Below are positions 13,075 to 56,301 of a stretch of 64,000 bases of DNA, piece after piece. Within the stretch, counting starts at the first letter, position 1. Each line of letters opens with the position of its first letter. The stretch lies in assembly GCA_000004695.1 (NCBI GenBank), contig CM000151.3:7296001-7360000 (forward strand), read 5' to 3'. A program made the position numbers and the translations under genes. The notes under the pieces are model-generated. The model was not told the origin of the DNA. It searched no databases and saw only the letters and a program-made list of their open reading frames with translations. This DNA is from Dictyostelium discoideum (taxonomy: Eukaryota).

Positions 13075-14965
13075 ATGAAAATCATGTCGCCAATTTTTAG
13101 TTTTTTCATAACATTGTTCAATATGATAAAGAGAGCATTGGCACCAATCGTTCAACCACAAAGATTGTTTGCCGCTTTAATGGTAATTGGTGGTGGTGGT
13201 AGATCAGCAACAACAACAACAACAACAACAACTAAAGCATGTGGTAATGGATCATCTCAGTCACCTCCATCTACACCATTATTATCATCAAAATCCTCAA
13301 CAATAACATCAAATAAAAAATCAGCAATACCATCATCACATTTATATATTCCAAAGAAATCAACATTAGATTCTAGACAAATTGGAAATTATTCAAGAGA
13401 ATATTCTACCTCCTCCTCTTCATCATCAAAAAAGTCAATCTTTAATGATACATATTTAAATGATTTATTTTGGCAATTATCATCACAAGGTCCTGCATTT
13501 GAAGTTAATCCAAATAATATAGATTTTATTCAAGAACCAATTGATTTTTATAATCATTTAATTGTAAAGTATTATACTACCCTCCCCTCCCCTCACCTCA
13601 CCTCACCTCCCCCCATATCATATAATATTAATATATTTTTTATTTTTTATTTTTTTTTAGGATGGAGTTAAAAGATCAAAAAAAAGAATTACAATGGCAT
13701 CATTATATTTAGGTACAAGTAAACAAGAGATTGAATTAGTTAAAGAGATGAAATTAGCAATGGAAAGAAATAAAGAATTAAAGATACATATATTATTGGA
13801 TGGTTTAAGGGGTACTAGAATTGGATTAGATAAAGAGAGTAGTGCAACTATATTGGGTGAACTATTAAGCCTTTACTCTGATCGTGTCACTATAAGTATG
13901 TATCATACACCAGACCTAAATGGAATCTTAAAGAAAGTATTACCACCAAGAATCAATGAAACCATTGGTGTTCAACATATTAAAACCTATATATTCGATG
14001 ACGATTTACTTTTAAGTGGTGCAAATCTATCTAAAGATTATTTCACAAATAGACAAGATCGTTATGTTTTAATTCGTTCCACAAGCACAGTTTCAAACTA
14101 TTTCAATGAGATCGTTGAAATCATCGGTTCACTCTCTCTACATGTCGATAAAGATAATAGGAATCAGTTACTCCTATCATCTGGTTCAATCGATCCAGTC
14201 ACACAATCAAATGAATTTAAAAATTTAGCATATACAAAATTATCAACACTTTTAAAATCACATTCATATTATCCAAGTAACAGTAATAGTAATTCATCAG
14301 TTGATTCACCATTTGATTGTAATAATATAAATAATGGGGAGACTACTTGGATATTTCCAACAATTCAAATGGGACCATTTAATATACGTCAGGATGAGGT
14401 TGTTACATCACACATTTTCGAATCTGTTCCAAATGATTCTAAATTCTTTATCACTTCACCATACTTTAATTTAACAGAGAATTACTTAAACTTAATTCTA
14501 ACTGGTAAACCAAAATTGGATATTATCACATGTTCACCACAAGCCAATGGATTCTATGGTAGTAAAGGCTTGAGTAGTGCAGTACCCGACTGTTATGCAA
14601 TTATAGAGAAACGTTTCCTTCAACGTGTTCAAGATACTGATAATGGTGATCGTATCTCTGTTCAAGAGTATATTCGTGATAAATGGACCTATCATGCCAA
14701 GGGACTTTGGATTCAAGTAAAGAATCAACAACATCCATCCATTACACTCATTGGTAGTCCAAATTTCGGTTCACGTAGTGTTGAAAAGGATTTAGAAGCT
14801 CAAATCATTTTAATCACTCAAAATAAACAATTACAACAAAAAATGGAAAATGAAAAAAATTATCTTTGGACTGATACTCAAAATGCTAACCTTGAATTAT
14901 TTGAAAAAAGAAAAGTTTCTTTAATGGTTAGATTTTTAGTTTATATTTTTGGTAATTATTTATAA
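13075..14965 (+). CDS. pgs1: CDP-diacylglycerol--glycerol-3-phosphate 3-phosphatidyltransferase (PGP synthase, phospholipase-D-type, mitochondrial); 2 exons 13075..13563, 13661..14965
   Basis: There are two PLD HKD-like motifs: HIKTYIFDDDLLLSGANLSKDYFTNRQDRYVLI and HAKGLWIQVKNQQHPSITLIGSPNFGSRS. The N-terminus MIKRALAPIVQPQRLFAALMV looks like a mitochondrial presequence. One 97-nt phase-0 intron (GTAAAG..AG) carries an unusual C-rich tract. Confidence 0.8.
13581..13615. repeat. C-rich (G-rich on opposite strand) tract inside pgs1 intron
   Basis: ccctcccctcccctcacctcacctcacctcccccc. It is wholly within the 97-nt intron 13564..13660. This is very unusual in an AT-rich intron. The complement has runs of three or more G. 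Confidence 0.8.
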
Positions 14966-37558: not shown

Positions 37559-40500
37559 ATGCAATACGTTAATGGTAATGATATTTCAAGTCAAAGTATT
37601 CATGAAGTTTTAGAACTTGCATTTTCAACAAAAATCCCATGGACAAAATTAGAATATGAATCAAGTGAAAAACATATAATACATTCCTATTCATCACATG
37701 AAAGAGGTATTTATTTAAGTAAAGGTGTTGCAGAATTTAATATTTCACCAGAAAATATGTATGAACTTTTATTGGATATTTCTTCAAGATCAAAAGTAAT
37801 TATTATTATTATTATTATTTAAATTTTTAATTAATTTTTTTTTTATTTTTTTTTTATTTATTTATTTATTTAAATAAATAAAAGAAAAAAAAAAAAATTA
37901 TTAATTACTAATTATTTTTTAAAATTTTAAAAAAAGTGGGATTTTCATTGTAGAGAAGCACATATTATTGAAGAATATGATCATTTAAATCATATTATTC
38001 ATTTAAATTTTACAAATCCATTAATTAGTAATTTGGATATGAATTTATATAGAAGTTGTAAGTATGATCCACAAGAGAGATTATTTGTAATTGCTATGAG
38101 ATCAATTGAATTGGAGGATGGTGATGTTGATCAATTTGAATGTTTACCAAATGGATGGGTAATTCAAGGTTTAAGAGGACAAAAAGATAAATGTAAGATG
38201 ACATTCGTTCAACAATGTGATCTAAGAGATATAGAACTTCAACGTATTCCAGGTTATAAATCATTCAATAGTAAAGAGAGACTTGAGGATTTTCAATTTC
38301 TTACATTGTTTCCTGCCACTGTAAGTGGTAGACTTGCAAAGATTTTCGAATCTATAGAACTATACATATCAAACAATGTGAAGGATATTGAAACCAAGGA
38401 TATTCGTATCTCAATTATGGAAAAAGCAGAAAAGGAGGTAAATGAAATGTTTGGTACAACCAATCCAGACTATGGTTGGAAAATTTATTTAAAGAAATTG
38501 GATATGGAAATTCTAATTAAAAAGACAACCTCTGGTTACTATATGATTGGTAAGGGTAGTTTTTCTTCGAGGTATTCACCAGAGTTATTGGCTGATGTAC
38601 TCTATCAGAAGAATCCTTTCGAATGGGATACTTTTTATGATAAAACTAAATTGGTTGAAAGTATCAATAGTTCAATCAGAGAGGTCGAGGTTCATTATAG
38701 AATGTGGAGAAATACAATCACCATGAGATTGCTACAATCCGTTAAAAAAGGACCTGGTAATTTCTCATCGGTACATTGGAGAAGTATTTGTTCTCCAAAT
38801 TATCAAGTGGCTGATGGTATCGAAGTACATTATCTTCCTACTGCACTCTTAAACTATGGTTTAGGTGATGGTAGTTTCACAAGTTTCTTGGCGGCAATCG
38901 AGGTTAAAGGTTATCCAACTCCTTGGGAGGAAGAGATGGTAACTAAAATGTTTGCTGCTAGAATCATTTCAAATCAAAATAGTATCATAAATCATGTAAA
39001 TAAATTAACAGGTGGTTCAGAGATGATAAGAGAATTACCTGTTATTCCTTCAGTTCAACATCATTGTGGTGATGTTGGTTCTCATATTGGTACTCCTCAA
39101 GTCTATAATGCAATGGTCGAAAATTTTGCTGATATACTTTTAGATGAAGGTAATAAAGATGGAAATGTAGTTTCTTCAAAAAATAAAAGAAAAAGAAATA
39201 AAAATAATGAAAATAAAAATAATAATAATGATAATATAATTGATGAAGAAATTGAACAAGAGGAGGAAAATATTGAAAAAGATCAACAACAAACCCAACA
39301 ACAACAAACTCAAAAACAACAACAACAACAACAACAACAACAAAAAACACAACAACAACCACAACAGCAACAACAACAACCACAAGAACAACAACAAAAT
39401 CACTCACAACTAAAAAAAGAAATCAAACCTACAAGACCAAGTATTCGTTTTACCTATTTATTAAGTAACAGTAGTAGTGGACAACGTCCAATTGCTTGGT
39501 ATGAATCAAAAAAACAACCATTCTTATTTTTGGTTAGTGATAGTAGTGAGAGAAAAGGAAAGATTCAAAGAAAGACTTATTATTTCTCAAATTCAGGTTT
39601 TGATAATTTACCAGAGGAAGTGGTTCAAATTATATTTTCCAATTTATCGGCAATCAATATTGTCAACTTATCATTAGTTTGTAAAAGATTTAAAATGGCA
39701 ACTGATAGTCCAATTCTTTGGAAAAATCTTTATAAAAGTAATCCATTATTTCATAAAAAGACACCAAAAAGAAAACAAATCATTCATTCAAATCTAAGTA
39801 ATGATGAAAATAAAGTAAATTCAAATTCTGGTGATTCTGCTGATGGTTCATCAAGCCAAGAAGAAGAAGAACAACAACAACAAAATCAACAACAAAATCA
39901 ACAACAAAATCAACAACAACAACAACAACAAACATTTGACCTTTCAAATATTAATTTAAATGATCCAATATCATTATTAATGGTATTTACAAATGGAATA
40001 ATTCCTCAAAATTTATCACCAACTGAAATAATAAATGTTGGTGGAATAGTGTCTCAAATTGATTTGAATGATCTTTCAAACGTTGAAACTCTTATTCAAC
40101 AATTACCTCATCAAGTTTTATCATTGATTCAAATGAATACACTTGATGCAAAGATTCAACATTTATCAATGATTAGTGGAATGCCAGCAACCATTGGTCA
40201 AGAATCACCAATCAATAAAAACTCTTCAGATAATCCAAAACCAAATGCATACAATAAAAGAGATAACAACTCTTATATTCCTGATGAAGAGTTTATTAAT
40301 TGGAAATCACATTACACTGAAAAACATAAGCAATCAAAGAGATGGGTTAATATGGAACCAATTCGTATCACCCCTCTAAAGGGTCACAATAGGGCAATCA
40401 AAGCTGTAAAGAGTGAGGGTAATTCAGCTATCACCGTATCAACAGAGAAAAAAATCAAATTTTGGAATTTAAACACTGGTCAATGTATTGGAGACTACGA

Positions 40501-41443
40501 AGGTGAATCAGGTGTTCTCTCTGTAGAGTATGATCACACTCAAAAGTCATCTTGTATTTGGCCATTGTCAGATTATACCAAAGTCCACATTGGCCATAAG
40601 AATGGTACCGTCACTATGGTTGATTTCATTGAACAACCAATTGAAGTTATTCATACATCAAGACCAACCAATTTGGCTGATGGTTTCGATTTCACCTTTC
40701 CTGGTAAATATTTGATTTGGGAACACACAATCATTCACTATTGGGATGTTGAAACAAGTACACTCTTGTGGAATGAACTAAATGCTCACACAAAGAAAAT
40801 CACTCAATCAAAGATTGTCGCACAACATGAACTTTCTAATAAAGGTATCGTATTCACAACTAGCTCTGATAAATCTGCAAAAGTTTGGGATTTAACAAAT
40901 GGTACTTGTATAAATACTTTGGTTGGCCATTCATATGCCGTCAATTGTATTGAACCAATTGGTGACTATATGGCTTTGACAGGTTCCACTGATAAAACTC
41001 TTAAACTTTGGGATCTTAGACAAGCCTCAACATTTATATCTAGTTACTCTACTAAACACACTGGTCCAATTAGATGTATTTCCTATCAAGAAAAGAATGG
41101 TATTGTTTTAAGTGGTAGTGATGATGGTTCAATCATTGCATTTAACTTGGATAATTGGAATCTTTCAAATATCTCTGTTGTTAAAAAACCAATCTTTAAT
41201 AATGTTATTGGTAATATTGGTACAACAACAACAACAACTACTACTACCACTACAACTACAACTACTACTACTTCAACTACAAATAATACTAATGTACCAG
41301 AGATTCCAAAGATTAATTTAGGTACTTTTAAGGATTCCAAAAGACTTCATAATCATGAATCTGCTGTAACTTGCATTGAATCTGATGAAGCTGGTTTTAT
41401 TAGTGGATCACAAAATGGATTGGTTTTGAGATGGGACTTTTAA
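37559..41443 (+). CDS. fbxA: START lipid-binding domain + F-box + C-terminal WD40-repeat protein, 1247 aa; probably FbxA/ChtA; 2 exons 37559..37795, 37937..41443
   Basis: Exon 1 ends ..LLLDISSRSK, then a phase-0 GTAATT..AG intron, then WDFHCREAHIIEEYDH..., which gives a START-like domain. F-box: LPEEVVQIIFSNLSAINIVNLSLVCKRFKMATDSPILWKNLY. WD40 repeats in the last ~350 aa, for example GHSYAVNCIEPIGDYMALTGSTDKTLKLWDL. Long polyQ and polyT tracts. The spliced length of 1247 aa equals the length I recall for D. discoideum FbxA. Confidence 0.7.
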
Positions 41444-41817: not shown

Positions 41818-42487
41818 CTAATTAATACCCCAAACCTCAACAACATAAGGTTTGAAATCATTTTCCTTTGAGAGTACTGTATTATTAAAAGTTTCGGAAG
41901 GACCTGAATAACCGTGAAGGAATTCATTATCCATCCATAATCCAAACATTGAACCACCACCAATTGAAATATAATCGTGACTTGCATAAATGAACATGTC
42001 ATTCTCTTTTGTCCATCGGAAGATATCGAAATCTGGATATATTTTGAATAAGAAAGTTTCACCACTACCAAAGAATACATCTTTTCTAGGTTCAACACGG
42101 TCAGATAAAAATGCACCAAAAATGTATCCATTCTCATCTTGAATCAAAAGAATGGATTGTTCAACTGTTTTGATTCTTTTATAAAAAGTGATGAAAGAAA
42201 CACCGTCGTTGGTGGTGTTGAAGAGTAATTCAATATCTGAGCCTTGAGTACGAATTGGAAGATAATGACGAAGTTTTTTATAGATTTCTGGTGTCATTAA
42301 TATTTTCTCTTGGAATTGATATTTAGTTTGATCTTGTAATAATTTTGGTGTTGTTGAGAAAGTCTCATCAAAAGAGGAGGCTAATGAATCACTAGATACA
42401 AGGGATCTAATATTATTATGACTACCATTTCTCCAATGATTAATTGAAATGGGTGCTGTTGGTTTTATACCTGTTGTAGTAACAGTG

Positions 42488-42519
<32 letters not shown>

Positions 42520-43324
42520 GGTAGTATTATTATTATTATTATTAATCGATAATGGTGCAATAACTGTTTGTTGACTATTGAAAGAACCTGTTAAATTTGG
42601 ACTTGAGGTTTGAGGTGAAAATTTACTATCAACAATCAATTGTTTTAAATAAGAGAAACAAGTATGAACACTTGTAGGATCACTACCTCTGAAGAATAAA
42701 GTTTGAATAGAGTTATCTTTATGAATGATTGCATAAATACAAGGAAAGATTAAAACCTTTTTATTTGCTCCAGTGATTTCATCTGTAACTGTCATTTCTT
42801 CTTCCTCTTCCATTAAATTTAATTTTGAAATTTCTTTTTGAATAAAAGCATCATGTTCCTCTTCTTCTTTTTTACTTTTAACCTTTGATTTTACTTTACT
42901 ATTATTATCATTGCCAATGCCACCAACTGAGCTACCATTTATACCTTTGTTAATTTTATCTTTAATATAACGTTGTTCTTTATACCAATCTTTTGAAAAA
43001 TGAGCTAACCATTCCGATTTATCGAATAAATATTTACAACTAATAATATGTGAATATTCAGCATGTAATTGAACAGATTTACCTATTAAACCTGGTTCCA
43101 TTATTGATTGAAAGATTAATTGATATGGTGTAAGTGTAAGATGACCAACCACTTTTTGATTTCTCATAAAACAAACTAATTTTTCTTTAACTATACTTTC
43201 TTTACTAATTCTTTCAAATCTACTTGTTGCTGAGAATGGTATATGAATTGGTGGTTTATTATTTGTAATTGGATTATTACTTATACTATTACCACTATTA
43301 TTATTACTATTATTATTATTATTG

Positions 43325-43355
<31 letters not shown>

Positions 43356-43369
43356 TACTATTATTATTA

Positions 43370-43404
<35 letters not shown>

Positions 43405-44631
43405 GTTGTTATTATTATTACCATCATCAAATGCCATTTTAATTTCTTCTTTTGATGGTTTAAATAAATCATTTACATTTAAGGATGAACCACCTGATAA
43501 AGCTCTTCCTCTATTATTACTATTATTAGTAGGTGATAAACATTCGATACCACCACTACCATTAATACTACTACTACTAACACTACTACTACTATTATTA
43601 ATATCTAATGAATCAATTGAATCAGCAGATGTTGTAATAAGGGATGGTGGTTGTTCAATAATTTGTTCCTCATTTAAATTTAGATTCTTTTTCTTATAAA
43701 CCCATAATTGTGTACCAGGTTTAAGTAATTTTTCAGAATGTAATAATCTATTAGCTTGAATTAAAACATCTCTTGGCATTGAGAATTGAAGTGAAATACC
43801 AGTAAGTGTATCTTTTTCTTTTACAGTATAAAGTTGATAAATATAATTATTATTTGAAATATTTGGGGGTTCTGCAAATTTACAACCTATTGAACCTGAT
43901 CTCGTTCTATTACCGCCACTTGGTGTAAATCCACCACTATTATTATTATTATTATTATTATAATTACTATTATTTCCATTTAATAAAATATCAATTGATG
44001 GTGAAACTAAATTTGTTGAAGCACTTTGAGATCTTAATCTCTCATTGTTGTTATTATTACTAGCACCAATCATTGGTGATAAAGATGGACTATTTATTGG
44101 AGGTACAGCAGATGATAATGAAATTGGTGATAATGGTGTACCACCACTAAGTGGATGAGTTGTAACAGGTGTACCACTAGTTCCTTCATGATAAGGTGAA
44201 TTTAAATTGATTTTCTTTGGTTGATTATTTACATTCTTTGGTATTCTCTTTTGAATGGTTGGTGAATCTAATAGATTGGTGATCTCTGGGAAATGAGATT
44301 TATTTGATTTATAAAATGATGAAATCAATGCCAACAAGTGATAAAGATACGGTTTTTTTTTATCCTTTAATTGACTTGCTAATTTATCCAATTTCTTCTT
44401 TAATTTAACTTTAAAATCTGTAATTGCCATTGTTGAATCACTAAAAACAATATCAAATGATGGTGCTGCTGATGGATATAAAAATGGGAATAAAATGATC
44501 ACTACAAATTTTCTATTATCAACATTTGCAATACAAACTCTATCTGCTAATGATAATTTTTCAAATGTAACATATTCAAATTTCTCTGTAATTATATTAC
44601 CAAGTTCTTGATGTAAATCTAATGGTTTATG

Positions 44632-44713
<82 letters not shown>

Positions 44714-46251
44714 GTTATAAATGGTGATTTTTTATTTAAATTTGAAATATCTTCTTCATCTGTACTTTCCTCTAATTCATTTGATAACATTTTATTCATT
44801 AAATCTTGTGATTCTTGAGAAATTCTAATATTAGTTGGTAATACTAATTTTGGAGGACCATCTTCCTTTGTAAAGATATCAATCATTTCATTTGTAATTC
44901 TCCACATATTGAATTGATTATCTTTACCAATTGATGTTACATAATGTTGTTTTTCACCACCTGCTACTTCAGTTGTTCTCCAATCAAAATTTAATATAGT
45001 ATCTTTATGTCCACCTGATAATGAAAGTATTGGATGCTCTGAACATTTTGCATTCCTAAATTGAATATCATTATATGATCCCTTTGATGAAATTGAACCA
45101 ATAATATCATTATTAACAAATGGCTAAAAAAAAAAAAATAATAAATAAATAAATATTAAATTAATACTTTTATTATTATTTCCAATTGATCAATGATATT
45201 TTTAAAAATAACAAGGTGTATATATAAATATACATACAAGGAATCTAGCGATATTACAAGTTGAATCTATATTATATCTATGTAATAAATTACTTGGAGG
45301 TGTTACATCCCAAACTTTTACACATTTTTCAGTTGGGCCACATGTTAATAGTTGATTTCTTTCCTTTGGACTCCATTCAATATTTGAAATTGAACCTATA
45401 TGTGCTGAAACACATGATAATGGTGATCCAAATTTCTATAAAAAAAAAAAAAAAAAATAAAAAAAAAAAAAAATGTTATTAATAAGTGTTGTTATAAAAA
45501 TATTAGAGTTTTTATTAATAATAATAATAATTACTCTTATATCCCAAATATTAAATTCACTAGCATTTGAAGTTGCTAGCATTGTACTTGAATTTGGATT
45601 CCAAGCGATTTGAGATAAATTTGATCTTGCTTTAAAGTTTGTACTAATTCCACCACTACCTTGAGTACGTTCTCTAATATCGAAAATATTTGCCATACAA
45701 TCAGAGCTTGCACTAGCGATTAAATTGGTCTCTTGTGTATTCCATGAGAGTGATGTAATATGTCTAATATGTGATTTAGAGAATTTAACAATCAATTTCT
45801 CATCTCTAACATTCCAAAGATAAATTGAATAATCCTTTAATGATGATGATACTAATAAATGTGATTCAGATTTATTTGTACTCCATTTTAATAAATCACA
45901 TTCAATCTCTTTAGAATTTGATTTTAATTTCTTAAAAATACATGGTGTTGTTGTTGGTGATGATGTTGTGGTTGTTGTCGATGATGATGATGATGAATGA
46001 TGTGATGATAAAAAACCTTTACTAATATTATTACTACTACTACTTGCTTCATCTATAATACTGATTTTATCATCTTGTGTATCCTTTGGTAAATTCAATA
46101 TGAATAAACTTCTCTCACTTGAGATTGCAACATGTTCACCTGTTAAATCAACTGCCAATGATGAGAATTTATATTTATTCTTTTTATCTAAACATGTTGA
46201 TACAATTGGTTGGAATGAATTTTGTTTAAACTGATTTGTACCATCCATCAT
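41818..46251 (-). CDS. multidomain protein with N-terminal WD40 repeats, LysM, GRAM and C-terminal TLDc domains (OXR1/NCOA7-like C-terminal half); 3 exons 46251..45535, 45435..45238, 45123..41818; about 1406 aa
   Basis: ORF 45436..46251 (WD repeats, for example LVSSSLKDYSIYLWNV and ASASSDCMANIFDI) ends at a phase-0 GTAATT donor. A 198-nt exon (KFGSPLSCVSAHIGSISNIEWSPKERNQLLTCGPTEKCVKVWDV...NIARFL) follows. A GTATGT..AG intron then leads into an open frame that is continuous with ORF 41818..44907 (PFVNNDIIG...GHKDTILNFDWRT...NMWRITNEMIDIF...). LysM: YTVKEKDTLTGISLQFSMPRDVLIQANRLLHSEKLLKPGTQLWV. GRAM: ERISKESIVKEKLVCFMRNQKVVGHLTLTPYQLIFQS. TLDc: DIELLFNTTNDGVSFITFYKRIK...GYIFGAFLSD...GSGETFLFKIYPDFDIFRWTKENDMFIYAS...GLWMDNEFLHGYSGPSETFNNTVLS. 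Confidence 0.75.
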
Positions 46252-47112: not shown

Positions 47113-49014
47113 TTAAGAATTTGAATGATTTTTACCTGATAAAACTCTGTCTAAATTAAAAGCAGCACTAATTAAACTTAAATGAGTGAAAGCTTGTGGA
47201 AAATTACCTAAAGCTTCACCACCAATACCAATTTCTTCAGAGAATAAACCCAAATGATTTGCATAACCTAACATTTCATCAAATATTAAACGAGCTTTAA
47301 CTAGATATTCTTTATTGACAACGGAAGCTCTTGTTAAACTTTCGATTAACCAAAATGTACAAATATTGAAAGTACCTTCTTCACCATCCAAACCATCGGT
47401 TGCAATATGATCATCATGACCATGGGTTAGATTATAACGAAATACCAAAGAGTTTGCAACTAGACCTCCTTCTTCCACTGGTTTGAGTATTGCTTCTAAT
47501 GTTGCTAAATTTCTTGGGTCTGATGGAGCCATAAAGAAAACCAACGACATTATCAATGTTGAAGCATCCAATGCTTTACTACCATAGAATTGAGTAATCT
47601 TTGTCCATTTATCACGTGGGGCTGGGAATGATCTACGATCTGCCAAACGCAATCCTCTATCCAATGCCACCCAACACATTATCTTGGAGTAGGTGAAATG
47701 TTGTTTACCACTTCTAACTTCCCAAATACCTTCATCCTTGGTTTGATAATTATCAGCCACCCAATCGACCATCTTCCTAATATGTAACCAAAAATCGTAG
47801 GAAACCAACGACCCATACTTATTGGAGAGATAAATCGAATCCATAAACTCGCCGAAAATGTCCATTTGAACTTGATTGATTGCATCATTACCAACTCTAA
47901 CCGGCTTGCTATCTCTATAGCCTGAAAGATGGTCCAATGTGTATTCGGGGATTTTATCATCGCCATGAATGCTATACATGACACGCACGGGCATGCTTCT
48001 TTTTGGGTCGTCATAAACTGCTTCGGCACATCTTGTTTCCAACCATTTCATAAATGCATGTGCTTCTTCAATGAAGCCAATTCTAATCAAACCATAGACA
48101 GAGAAACTTGAATCTCTCAACCAAGCGTATCTGTAATCCCAATTTCTAGGCCCACCCAATCCCTCTGGTAGCGAACAAGTTGGCGAGGCAATGATTGCAC
48201 CCGTTGGAGCGAATGTCATAAGCTTCAAACATAGTGCACTACGTTCCACGATTTCCCTCCATCTTCCCTTGTAAGTGCATTTCTCCAACCATTTTTGCCA
48301 GTAGAATATGGTGCCCATGAATAATTCATTCTCCAATTTGCCAATATCCTCTGGAACACGATAGAGATGCTTTGGAAACAAGTCTACACTATCAAACGAT
48401 TCCTTTAGTATGAACACCACCACATCATTCTCTTTGACAGTGAAGACCGATTCTAGGAACCCCCCATTTCCATCATTGATAAGTGTCATTGGAATCTTTG
48501 ATATTAAATCTAAATTGATCTTTGTAGGCTCAGATTGAATATTGTAACCAAATTCTGTTTTCTCCATTTTATGTTTATCTAATGCGAAATTGAATGTTGG
48601 TTTGAATATCATTTTCATATCTAATTTGCCTCTGATTCCTTTAACTTTTCTAACTAACCATTTCGAGCCTTTTCCATCTACAACTGGCATATAATCAATC
48701 ACTGATGCTACCGATTCAACTAAATGAAATCTACTCTGAAGTACATTTGTATCTGGCCAATAGCTTTGCTTGGTTTTGGTTTGTTTACACTTCGATCTCA
48801 ATGTTTCTGGTGCAATACGCCAATGTCCACCCTTTTCACAATCTAACAATGAGCAAAACATAGCTGGTGAATCAAAATGCGGCCAACACATAAAATTAAT
48901 ATCAGCATGAATTGATATCAATGCACTTGTTAACATATTTCCAATAACTCCATGATTTTCAATTAATGGATAAGATTCACAAACTCCATCAATTTCAATT
49001 TCATTACTTGCCAT
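47113..49014 (-). CDS. glycoside hydrolase family 15-related protein (glucoamylase / bacterial-type trehalase-like), intronless
   Basis: Single 633-aa ORF. GH15-type motifs: NWDYRYAWLRDSSFSVYGLIRIGFIEEAHAFMKWL and FWLHIRKMVDWVADNYQTKDEGIWE. No signal peptide. By eye the GC content is clearly higher than in neighbouring genes (many GGC/GCC/CGC codons). The short ORFs 47679..48029 and 47929..48111 are alternative frames of this gene. Confidence 0.75.
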   Translation of the reverse strand: MASNEIEIDGVCESYPLIENHGVIGNMLTSALISIHADINFMCWPHFDSPAMFCSLLDCEKGGHWRIAPETLRSKCKQTKTKQSYWPDTNVLQSRFHLVESVASVIDYMPVVDGKGSKWLVRKVKGIRGKLDMKMIFKPTFNFALDKHKMEKTEFGYNIQSEPTKINLDLISKIPMTLINDGNGGFLESVFTVKENDVVVFILKESFDSVDLFPKHLYRVPEDIGKLENELFMGTIFYWQKWLEKCTYKGRWREIVERSALCLKLMTFAPTGAIIASPTCSLPEGLGGPRNWDYRYAWLRDSSFSVYGLIRIGFIEEAHAFMKWLETRCAEAVYDDPKRSMPVRVMYSIHGDDKIPEYTLDHLSGYRDSKPVRVGNDAINQVQMDIFGEFMDSIYLSNKYGSLVSYDFWLHIRKMVDWVADNYQTKDEGIWEVRSGKQHFTYSKIMCWVALDRGLRLADRRSFPAPRDKWTKITQFYGSKALDASTLIMSLVFFMAPSDPRNLATLEAILKPVEEGGLVANSLVFRYNLTHGHDDHIATDGLDGEEGTFNICTFWLIESLTRASVVNKEYLVKARLIFDEMLGYANHLGLFSEEIGIGGEALGNFPQAFTHLSLISAAFNLDRVLSGKNHSNS

Positions 49015-52546: not shown

Positions 52547-56301
<3,755 letters not shown>

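Follow-up and report, generated by a model that had tools for sequence, protein, structure and literature searches.

In FBXW7, Cdc4 and beta-TrCP, an F-box is followed by a WD40 propeller, a layout that these proteins share with FbxA of Dictyostelium discoideum, and recognition of the (phospho)degron is presumably alike in all of them. The propellers of FBXW7 and Cdc4 have eight blades, as against the approximately seven that are read in FbxA. In addition, FBXW7, Cdc4 and beta-TrCP have no START domain, and a helical D-domain stands before their F-box, whereas FbxA has a PFLFLVS motif there. The fbxA gene has been studied since 2000 and is a textbook example of an obligate social cheater gene, which controls cyclic AMP (cAMP)/PKA signaling via turnover of RegA. 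Here, we describe the fbxA locus in a window of 64,000 nucleotides of D. discoideum DNA (positions 7,296,001 to 7,360,000 of contig CM000151.3, forward strand; all coordinates below are counted from the first letter of this window), in which the gene lies at 37559 to 41443 on the plus strand. An earlier note on this DNA, made from the letters alone, had read the product as an F-box/WD40 protein with a START domain in its first 230 residues or so. We find that the N-terminal part holds a pair of START domains instead of a single one, and that the second member of the pair is cryptic.

FbxA associates with Skp1 and with a cullin, as judged for the latter by co-precipitation (Mohanty 2001, as reviewed in PMC9108976), and FbxwA, which is the same protein, has been found in the Skp1 interactome (PMC9485057). 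In cells that lack fbxA, as in those that lack culA, the level of the cAMP phosphodiesterase RegA stays high once aggregation is over, and the prestalk/prespore proportions are skewed (PMC9108976); chtA/fbxA mutants behave as obligate cheaters (PMC2829058). In the accessible literature, FbxA is described as an F-box/WD40 protein only, whereas in the present analysis the N-terminal 444 of its 1247 amino acids (aa), over one third of the protein, are occupied by a pair of START domains.

A comparable pair is present in the plant HD-Zip III/IV proteins, in which a canonical START domain is followed by a diverged, previously unrecognized one (dSTART), both being fused to a regulator of cell fate. 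These START and dSTART domains bind phospholipids and control dimerization, localization and activity (PMC13590234). The two systems differ in the place of the output, which in plants is a homeodomain-leucine zipper N-terminal to the START domains and in FbxA is an F-box and a WD40 propeller C-terminal to them, and the plant dSTART has a disordered insert at alpha3-beta2, elsewhere than in FbxA. There is no evidence for common descent of the two tandem arrangements, and FbxA can be regarded as a non-plant example of a START plus cryptic-START arrangement.

Mammalian START proteins, including STARD13/DLC2 (RhoGAP-START), ACOT11 (thioesterase-START), STARD4/5/6 and StAR, have the same helix-grip fold and provide the best profile and Foldseek matches to the domains described here. 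Those with several domains set a precedent for a START domain that is attached to an enzyme or a regulator as its lipid sensor. However, they have a single START domain, which is usually C-terminal, none of them is fused to a ubiquitin-ligase adaptor, and their identity to the FbxA domains is only 11-18%.

Two START Domains in the N-Terminal Part of FbxA

The two domains and the methods by which they were assigned are as follows:

37574..38395, plus strand: START domain 1, residues about 6-232, spanning the intron (Pfam, family profile against PDB, AlphaFold2, Foldseek)
38402..39031, plus strand: START domain 2, residues about 235-444 (family profile against PDB, hhalign, AlphaFold2)

When residues 1-240 are used as a query, Pfam START (PF01852) matches residues 15-177 with 28.2 bits (E = 1.4e-6), above its curated (gathering) cut-off of 22 bits; with residues 1-445 as a query the score is 37.3 bits. 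Of 23 relatives, 20 also pass the threshold of this Pfam profile, with a best E-value of 4.9e-29. Since a single-sequence phmmer search of residues 1-484 against PDB gave a marginal match to the START domain of ACOT11 (E = 0.83), family profiles were needed. The family profile of domain 1 finds STARD6 (3.8e-14) and STARD13 (2e-12) in PDB, and further ACOT11, STARD10, STARD4, StAR, STARD3, PCTP and CERT. A weak PDF2_C match also lies within this domain.

Residues 241-484, queried alone, gave no match in Pfam. Nevertheless, sequence profiles and a predicted structure confirm residues about 235-444 as a second START domain, one not called by Pfam. The family alignment repeats the START pattern in this region (GW..., KG.F, WD.F, E.ID, RS, LPSG), and the profile of domain 2, made from 18 relatives, matches STARD13 (5.3e-12), STARD6 (7.5e-12) and STARD10 (8.6e-12) in PDB, followed at lower ranks by STARD4, ACOT11, STARD5 and CERT. 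Homologous copies of domain 2 match Pfam START on their own in 5 of the 18 relatives (best 4.9e-11). Moreover, the profiles of domains 1 and 2 align with each other over 162-200 columns in hhalign, with a probability of 98.5-98.6% and an E-value of about 1e-15 (1.4e-15).

The AlphaFold2 (AF2) model of residues 1-445, which was built from a 23-sequence alignment, has a mean predicted local distance difference test score (pLDDT) of 82.4 and a predicted template modeling score (pTM) of 0.70, and it consists of two helix-grip units. In START1, helix H6-22 is followed by strands, two short helices including H64-80, six strands and C-terminal helices including H212-232, with eight strands in total. 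In START2, the order is helix H235-253, three strands, H294-301, seven strands and a 37-residue helix, H408-444; pLDDT is mostly 84-94 here, single 10-residue blocks going down to 72. A Foldseek search of PDB with this model, in which the aligned domain is not specified for each match, returns START structures almost exclusively: StarD13, ACOT11, StAR, STARD4 (with a TM-score that reaches 0.84 on the target), STARD5, STARD10, PCTP, CERT, MLN64 and the silkworm carotenoid-binding protein. Bacterial di-domain ARO/CYC cyclases, which are themselves tandem helix-grip proteins, are returned as well.

Sequence and predicted fold can be set side by side for each domain. START1 combines a profile match above threshold with the helix-grip fold (an N-terminal helix, an antiparallel beta-sheet and a long C-terminal helix) in the AF2 model. 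START2 combines the family profile, the homologous copies and the hhalign alignment with the same predicted fold. As judged by Pfam, family profile, AF2 and Foldseek, the N-terminus of FbxA holds a genuine START/helix-grip domain, and in this respect the earlier note has stood up both to the Pfam search of residues 1-240 and to structure prediction of the N-terminus, in which the helix-grip folds appear and START structures are returned. What has to be corrected is the extent. The second of the motifs that the note had quoted for a START domain within the first 230 residues, YQVADGIEVHYLPTALLNYGLGDGSFTSF (YQVADGIEVHYLP...), is actually located at residues 368-396, within START2; what was taken for a single domain is a tandem of two (about 6-232 and 235-444), the motifs of both having been merged.

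START1 contains an insert at residues 182-210 (38243-38329; RIPGYKSF..DFQFLTLFPATVSG), which follows the last strand and precedes the C-terminal helix. It is the sole long low-confidence stretch of the AF2 model (pLDDT about 40). It is strongly conserved in the FbxA clade and missing from the paralog clade, both of which are described below, and might serve that clade as a docking element or a lid.

Gene Model and Identity of the Locus

The coding region consists of two exons and one intron:

37559..37795, plus strand: exon 1, codons 1-79, 237 nucleotides (open reading frame and translation, with a family-conserved MQYVNG start)
37796..37936, plus strand: the sole intron, 141 nucleotides, GT..AG, 2.8% GC, phase 0, within START domain 1
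37937..41443, plus strand: exon 2, codons 80-1247 and the stop codon at 41441-41443, 3507 nucleotides (open reading frame)

Joining 37559..37795 to 37937..41443 yields 1247 aa plus a stop codon, which reproduces exactly the phase-0 splice and the length that had been proposed from the letters alone, while the unspliced frame from the ATG at 37559 runs into a stop at 37822. From START1, exon 1 contributes helix alpha1, the initial beta-strands and the greater part of helices alpha2/alpha3, and exon 2 is one open frame of 1169 codons through the rest of START1, START2, the F-box and the WD40 propeller. The intron, placed between codons 79 and 80, falls inside the Pfam START match at residues 15-177, so that the only intron indeed splits a START domain, as had also been proposed. 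At the junction, ..SSRSK/WDFHCREAH.. aligns without any insertion or deletion to ..KSRTQ/WDIHCKEAD.. of the Cavenderia fasciculata ortholog, where tblastn and inspection of the locus reveal a GT..AG intron at the identical codon boundary. The splice junction is therefore independently supported. The start MQYVNG is kept in the FbxA orthologs and, exactly or with 1-3 substitutions, in the other full-length relatives (17 relatives in all). The GC content is 22% in the window and 31% in the fbxA coding sequence, and the flanks of the gene have long poly(A) tracts, which are typical of Dictyostelium intergenic DNA.

The F-box sequence of D. discoideum fbxA has been printed in the supplement of Boland et al. 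2022 (PMC9485057), and residues 631-675 encoded in the window match this string: FDNLPEEVVQII.FSNL-SAINIVNLSLV-CKRFKMATDSP--LWKNL. A word-indexed search, made with the single sequence and with a 15-sequence profile, gave just one protein, a truncated Cavenderia model of 318 aa that is 62% identical and bears the name "F-Box A protein", and an exhaustive HMMER search has revealed a D. purpureum ortholog of 1203 aa that is 73% identical over the N-terminus. Because the F-box string matches the published one and the Cavenderia ortholog is named F-Box A, the locus is, on sequence, fbxA, with the synonyms chtA and FbxwA, and the tentative naming as FbxA/ChtA in the earlier note was right. The F-box/WD40 layout, the single intron and the context of 22% GC all fit this gene, known also as 'cheater A'.

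Linkers, PFLFLVS Motif, F-Box and Propeller

The part of FbxA that follows the START domains contains the following elements:

39032..39508, plus strand: low-complexity linker, residues about 445-603, with poly-Q/N tracts (sequence)
39509..39547, plus strand: (K/R)(K/R)PFLFLVS motif, residues 604-616, KKQPFLFLVSDSS (family alignment)
39599..39736, plus strand: F-box, residues 634-679, Skp1-binding module (Pfam F-box-like, E = 6e-13; F-box, E = 2.6e-11)
40376..41440, plus strand: WD40 beta-propeller, residues about 893-1247, presumed substrate-binding domain (Pfam, PDB relatives, manual segmentation)

The F-box is conserved across the family of proteins that have the START-START-F-box-WD40 layout, and a second low-complexity linker follows it. 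For the WD40 region, Pfam gives an E-value of 8.9e-21 with four repeats above threshold, and propeller models span residues 896-1246. Read by hand, the region falls into seven blade-like units, of which five show a strict WD40 signature and two are degenerate; the first reading had likewise noted seven WD40-like repeats after the F-box. When residues 586-1247 are compared with PDB, FBXW7 is the best match (7.4e-40), followed by FBXW11, FBXW1A (beta-TrCP) and Cdc4.

About 25 residues upstream of the F-box lies the motif (K/R)(K/R)PF(L/I)(F/L)LV(S/N), which is conserved from Dictyostelia to Mastigamoeba. It is placed where the dimerization D-domain of FBXW7/beta-TrCP sits, yet it looks like a beta-strand.

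Within the poorly conserved linker after START2 there is a basic motif, KNKRKRN (residues 494-500; 39179-39199), resembling a nuclear localization signal, the KRKR core of which is shared by the FbxA clade and some more distant relatives in the family. Long poly-Q/poly-N tracts occur in both linkers (residues about 530-565 and 721-745), and a run of 17 threonines with an Asn/Thr-rich stretch is found inside the last WD40 blade (listed at 41011-41131; residues about 1151-1210 correspond to 41150-41329). These homopolymer tracts are typical Dictyostelium expansions that are tolerated within a conserved gene.

Family and Conservation

An exhaustive HMMER search of the family yielded 30 matches at E <= 1e-3. 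The FbxA clade comprises D. discoideum, D. purpureum, Cavenderia and two further sequences. A second dictyostelid clade, with the start MQYVNGLDVA and a length of about 950-1150 aa, comprises sequences of Synstelium, Heterostelium, Tieghemostelium and Acytostelium and a protein of Dictyostelium cf. discoideum (KAM9990634.1); its members are annotated only as 'WD40 repeat-containing' or 'hypothetical'. The Archamoebae Mastigamoeba balamuthi and Pelomyxa schiedti have members as well, and several further assemblies also contribute. All full-length members of these groups have the same layout, START-START-motif-F-box-WD40, and a crude neighbor-joining tree separates the two dictyostelid clades. 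As both dictyostelid clades and the Archamoebae share this layout, the design predates the dictyostelid radiation and dictyostelid multicellularity, and D. discoideum has a paralog. Among the 30 matches, all START-F-box-WD40 proteins with an assigned organism belong to Dictyostelia or Archamoebae, which bears out the remark, made at first reading, that F-box/WD40 proteins do not usually carry START domains.

START1 of D. discoideum is 62% identical to its Cavenderia counterpart and START2 is 53% identical. The corresponding values are 68% for the F-box, 47% for the propeller and only 25-32% for parts of the linkers (residues 485-585, at 32%, and 681-865). By this measure, the START module is constrained at least as much as the substrate-binding propeller.

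The Cavenderia ortholog (on GL883014.1; 10001-13947 of the locus analyzed) can be reconstructed from four exons, separated by three GT..AG introns, as a protein of 1236 aa that is collinear with FbxA of the window. In the public annotation, the locus is split into the 318-aa 'F-Box A protein' and an unnamed protein of 353 aa, the last 55 or so residues of the 318-aa model being a spurious read-through. Since a single frame runs from START2 through the propeller, the sequence identifies this split as an annotation error in the public record.

Other protist matches also have START domains in tandem. One from Diphylleia rotans (P0015, 962 aa) has about four after a hydrophobic N-terminus, and others are P0023, with 8 matched stretches, P0025 and P0005, the last of which has 422 aa and is START-START alone, lacking both F-box and WD40. 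FbxA is thus not the only protein in which START domains are arrayed in tandem.

A Proposed Regulatory Input on an SCF Substrate Receptor

How should this layout be understood? FbxA, which is built, from the N-terminus, of START-START, linker, PFLFLVS motif, F-box and a propeller of the FBXW7/beta-TrCP type, is very probably the substrate receptor of a Skp1-cullin-F-box (SCF) ubiquitin ligase, with the START pair as a likely regulatory input. In this scheme, the F-box would dock on Skp1 and the WD40 propeller would bind the (phospho)substrate, while the START-START module would bind either a hydrophobic ligand, such as a phospholipid or a sterol-like molecule, or a membrane. Such binding would control the localization or oligomerization of the receptor, or access of the substrate to it. 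By analogy with the plant and mammalian START proteins, the START module most likely senses lipids for, or otherwise regulates, the SCF substrate receptor that carries it; a lipid or a sterol as its actual ligand is pure conjecture. A conserved START pair would provide a handle on the signal that regulates the SCF-FbxA ligase.

Several points weigh against this understanding. To our knowledge, START domains have no universal or conserved ligand-binding residues by which a ligand could be recognized. Seven blades are a plausible count, read manually from the sequence, and identity of the full-length 1247-aa product to the database FbxA is inferred from the F-box string and the orthologs. No role has been assigned to the N-terminus of FbxA in the accessible literature, and the F-box catalog of 2022 gives only WD40 for fbxA (PMC9485057).

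Might the START pair instead be a ligand-free scaffold? The two domains would then be modules for protein-protein interaction or dimerization, or a second surface for docking of substrate or membrane, much as FBXW7/beta-TrCP is dimerized by its D-domain. This is possible but rather unlikely. START2 is too diverged to be recognized by Pfam, AF2 packs both domains into one confident unit (pTM 0.70), and the Pfam scan and the family alignment show no canonical D-domain before the F-box, only the PFLFLVS motif. The plant START and dSTART promote homodimerization, but this dimerization is itself coupled to lipid binding (PMC13590234). Furthermore, both START domains of FbxA keep the full secondary-structure order of the helix-grip fold, and no other family matches their profiles as well as the lipid-binding STARDs do, neither of which favors a scaffold without ligand.

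The regulatory-input reading can also be carried further, to an SCF-FbxA that is a lipid- or morphogen-gated ubiquitin ligase, the START pair of which binds one particular hydrophobic signal. This could be a sterol or a phospholipid, and for the FbxA clade also a polyketide, DIF-1 for example. We consider this extension improbable. If it were true, ligand binding would switch the recruitment of RegA on or off and so tie a diffusible or membrane lipid cue directly to the stalk/spore decision and to 'cheating'. The second START domain, together with conservation in the Archamoebae, would then mark out a family of F-box receptors in amoebozoans that sense ligands.

It is very doubtful that the START module is specifically a receptor for a Dictyostelium-specific lipophilic morphogen (DIF-1 or another polyketide), which would make SCF-FbxA a hormone-gated ligase like TIR1 for auxin and COI1 for jasmonate. 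The likeness to these two is a functional analogy only, in that they are SCF receptors dependent on a small hydrophobic molecule, gating being hypothetical in FbxA; in TIR1 and COI1 the ligand is bound in the leucine-rich-repeat substrate-binding domain, and they have no START domain and no homology to FbxA outside the F-box. The points in its favor are indirect: START/Bet v 1 folds do bind polyketides and sterols, bacterial ARO/CYC polyketide cyclases are among the top Foldseek matches, and START1 carries a conserved insert that is peculiar to the FbxA clade. FbxA also controls the prestalk/prespore choice (PMC9108976, PMC2829058), a cell-fate phenotype that lends such a receptor some appeal. 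On the other hand, the same architecture is found in the Archamoebae Mastigamoeba and Pelomyxa and in the second dictyostelid paralog clade. We know of no multicellular stage in Mastigamoeba or Pelomyxa, nor of any social behavior. As the layout occurs in these Archamoebae too, the ancestral ligand, if there was any, is more likely to have been a general cellular lipid.

Finally, an artefact, either a chance similarity to START or two neighboring genes misjoined, deserves next to no credence: a single-sequence AF2 model of residues 1-484 has a pLDDT of only 32 and the locus is annotated as two genes in Cavenderia, but the 1169-codon frame joins the second part of START1, START2, the F-box and the WD40 propeller, independent full-length models, 900-1200 aa long, are available from D. 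purpureum, Heterostelium, Tieghemostelium, Acytostelium, Mastigamoeba and Pelomyxa, and Pfam START is above threshold in most relatives, as given above. Fusion of two genes is effectively refuted by the uninterrupted frame and the full-length relatives, the Cavenderia split being the annotation error already mentioned.

Neither the fbxA gene nor its first START domain is new. FbxA/ChtA is said to have been listed as a START-F-box-WD40 protein by Schrick et al. in 2004, and public domain annotation should already carry START1, because the match passes the curated threshold of Pfam, while FbxA was not found combined with the term 'START domain' in the accessible literature. The additions made here are modest: the second, cryptic START domain, the amoebozoan spread with a dictyostelid paralog clade, the PFLFLVS motif and the mis-split Cavenderia model. 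In practice, they provide a hypothesis that can be tested and corrections to two annotations, for the second START domain and for the Cavenderia model, rather than a new kind of system.

Neighborhood

Other genes of the window include the following:

13694-14965, plus strand: PLD-like protein (neighboring open reading frame)
41818-44907, minus strand: LysM+TLDc protein, convergent with fbxA (neighboring open reading frame)
47113-49014, minus strand: GH15/trehalase-N-type hydrolase (neighboring open reading frame)
53694-56000, plus strand: E1-like ubiquitin-activating enzyme, ThiF + UBA_E1_SCCH (neighboring open reading frame)

These neighbors are unrelated to fbxA and have no bearing on the function of FbxA, the location of an E1-like gene 12 kb away being coincidental. 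A beta-lactamase-fold protein and an M28 peptidase are also encoded in the window.

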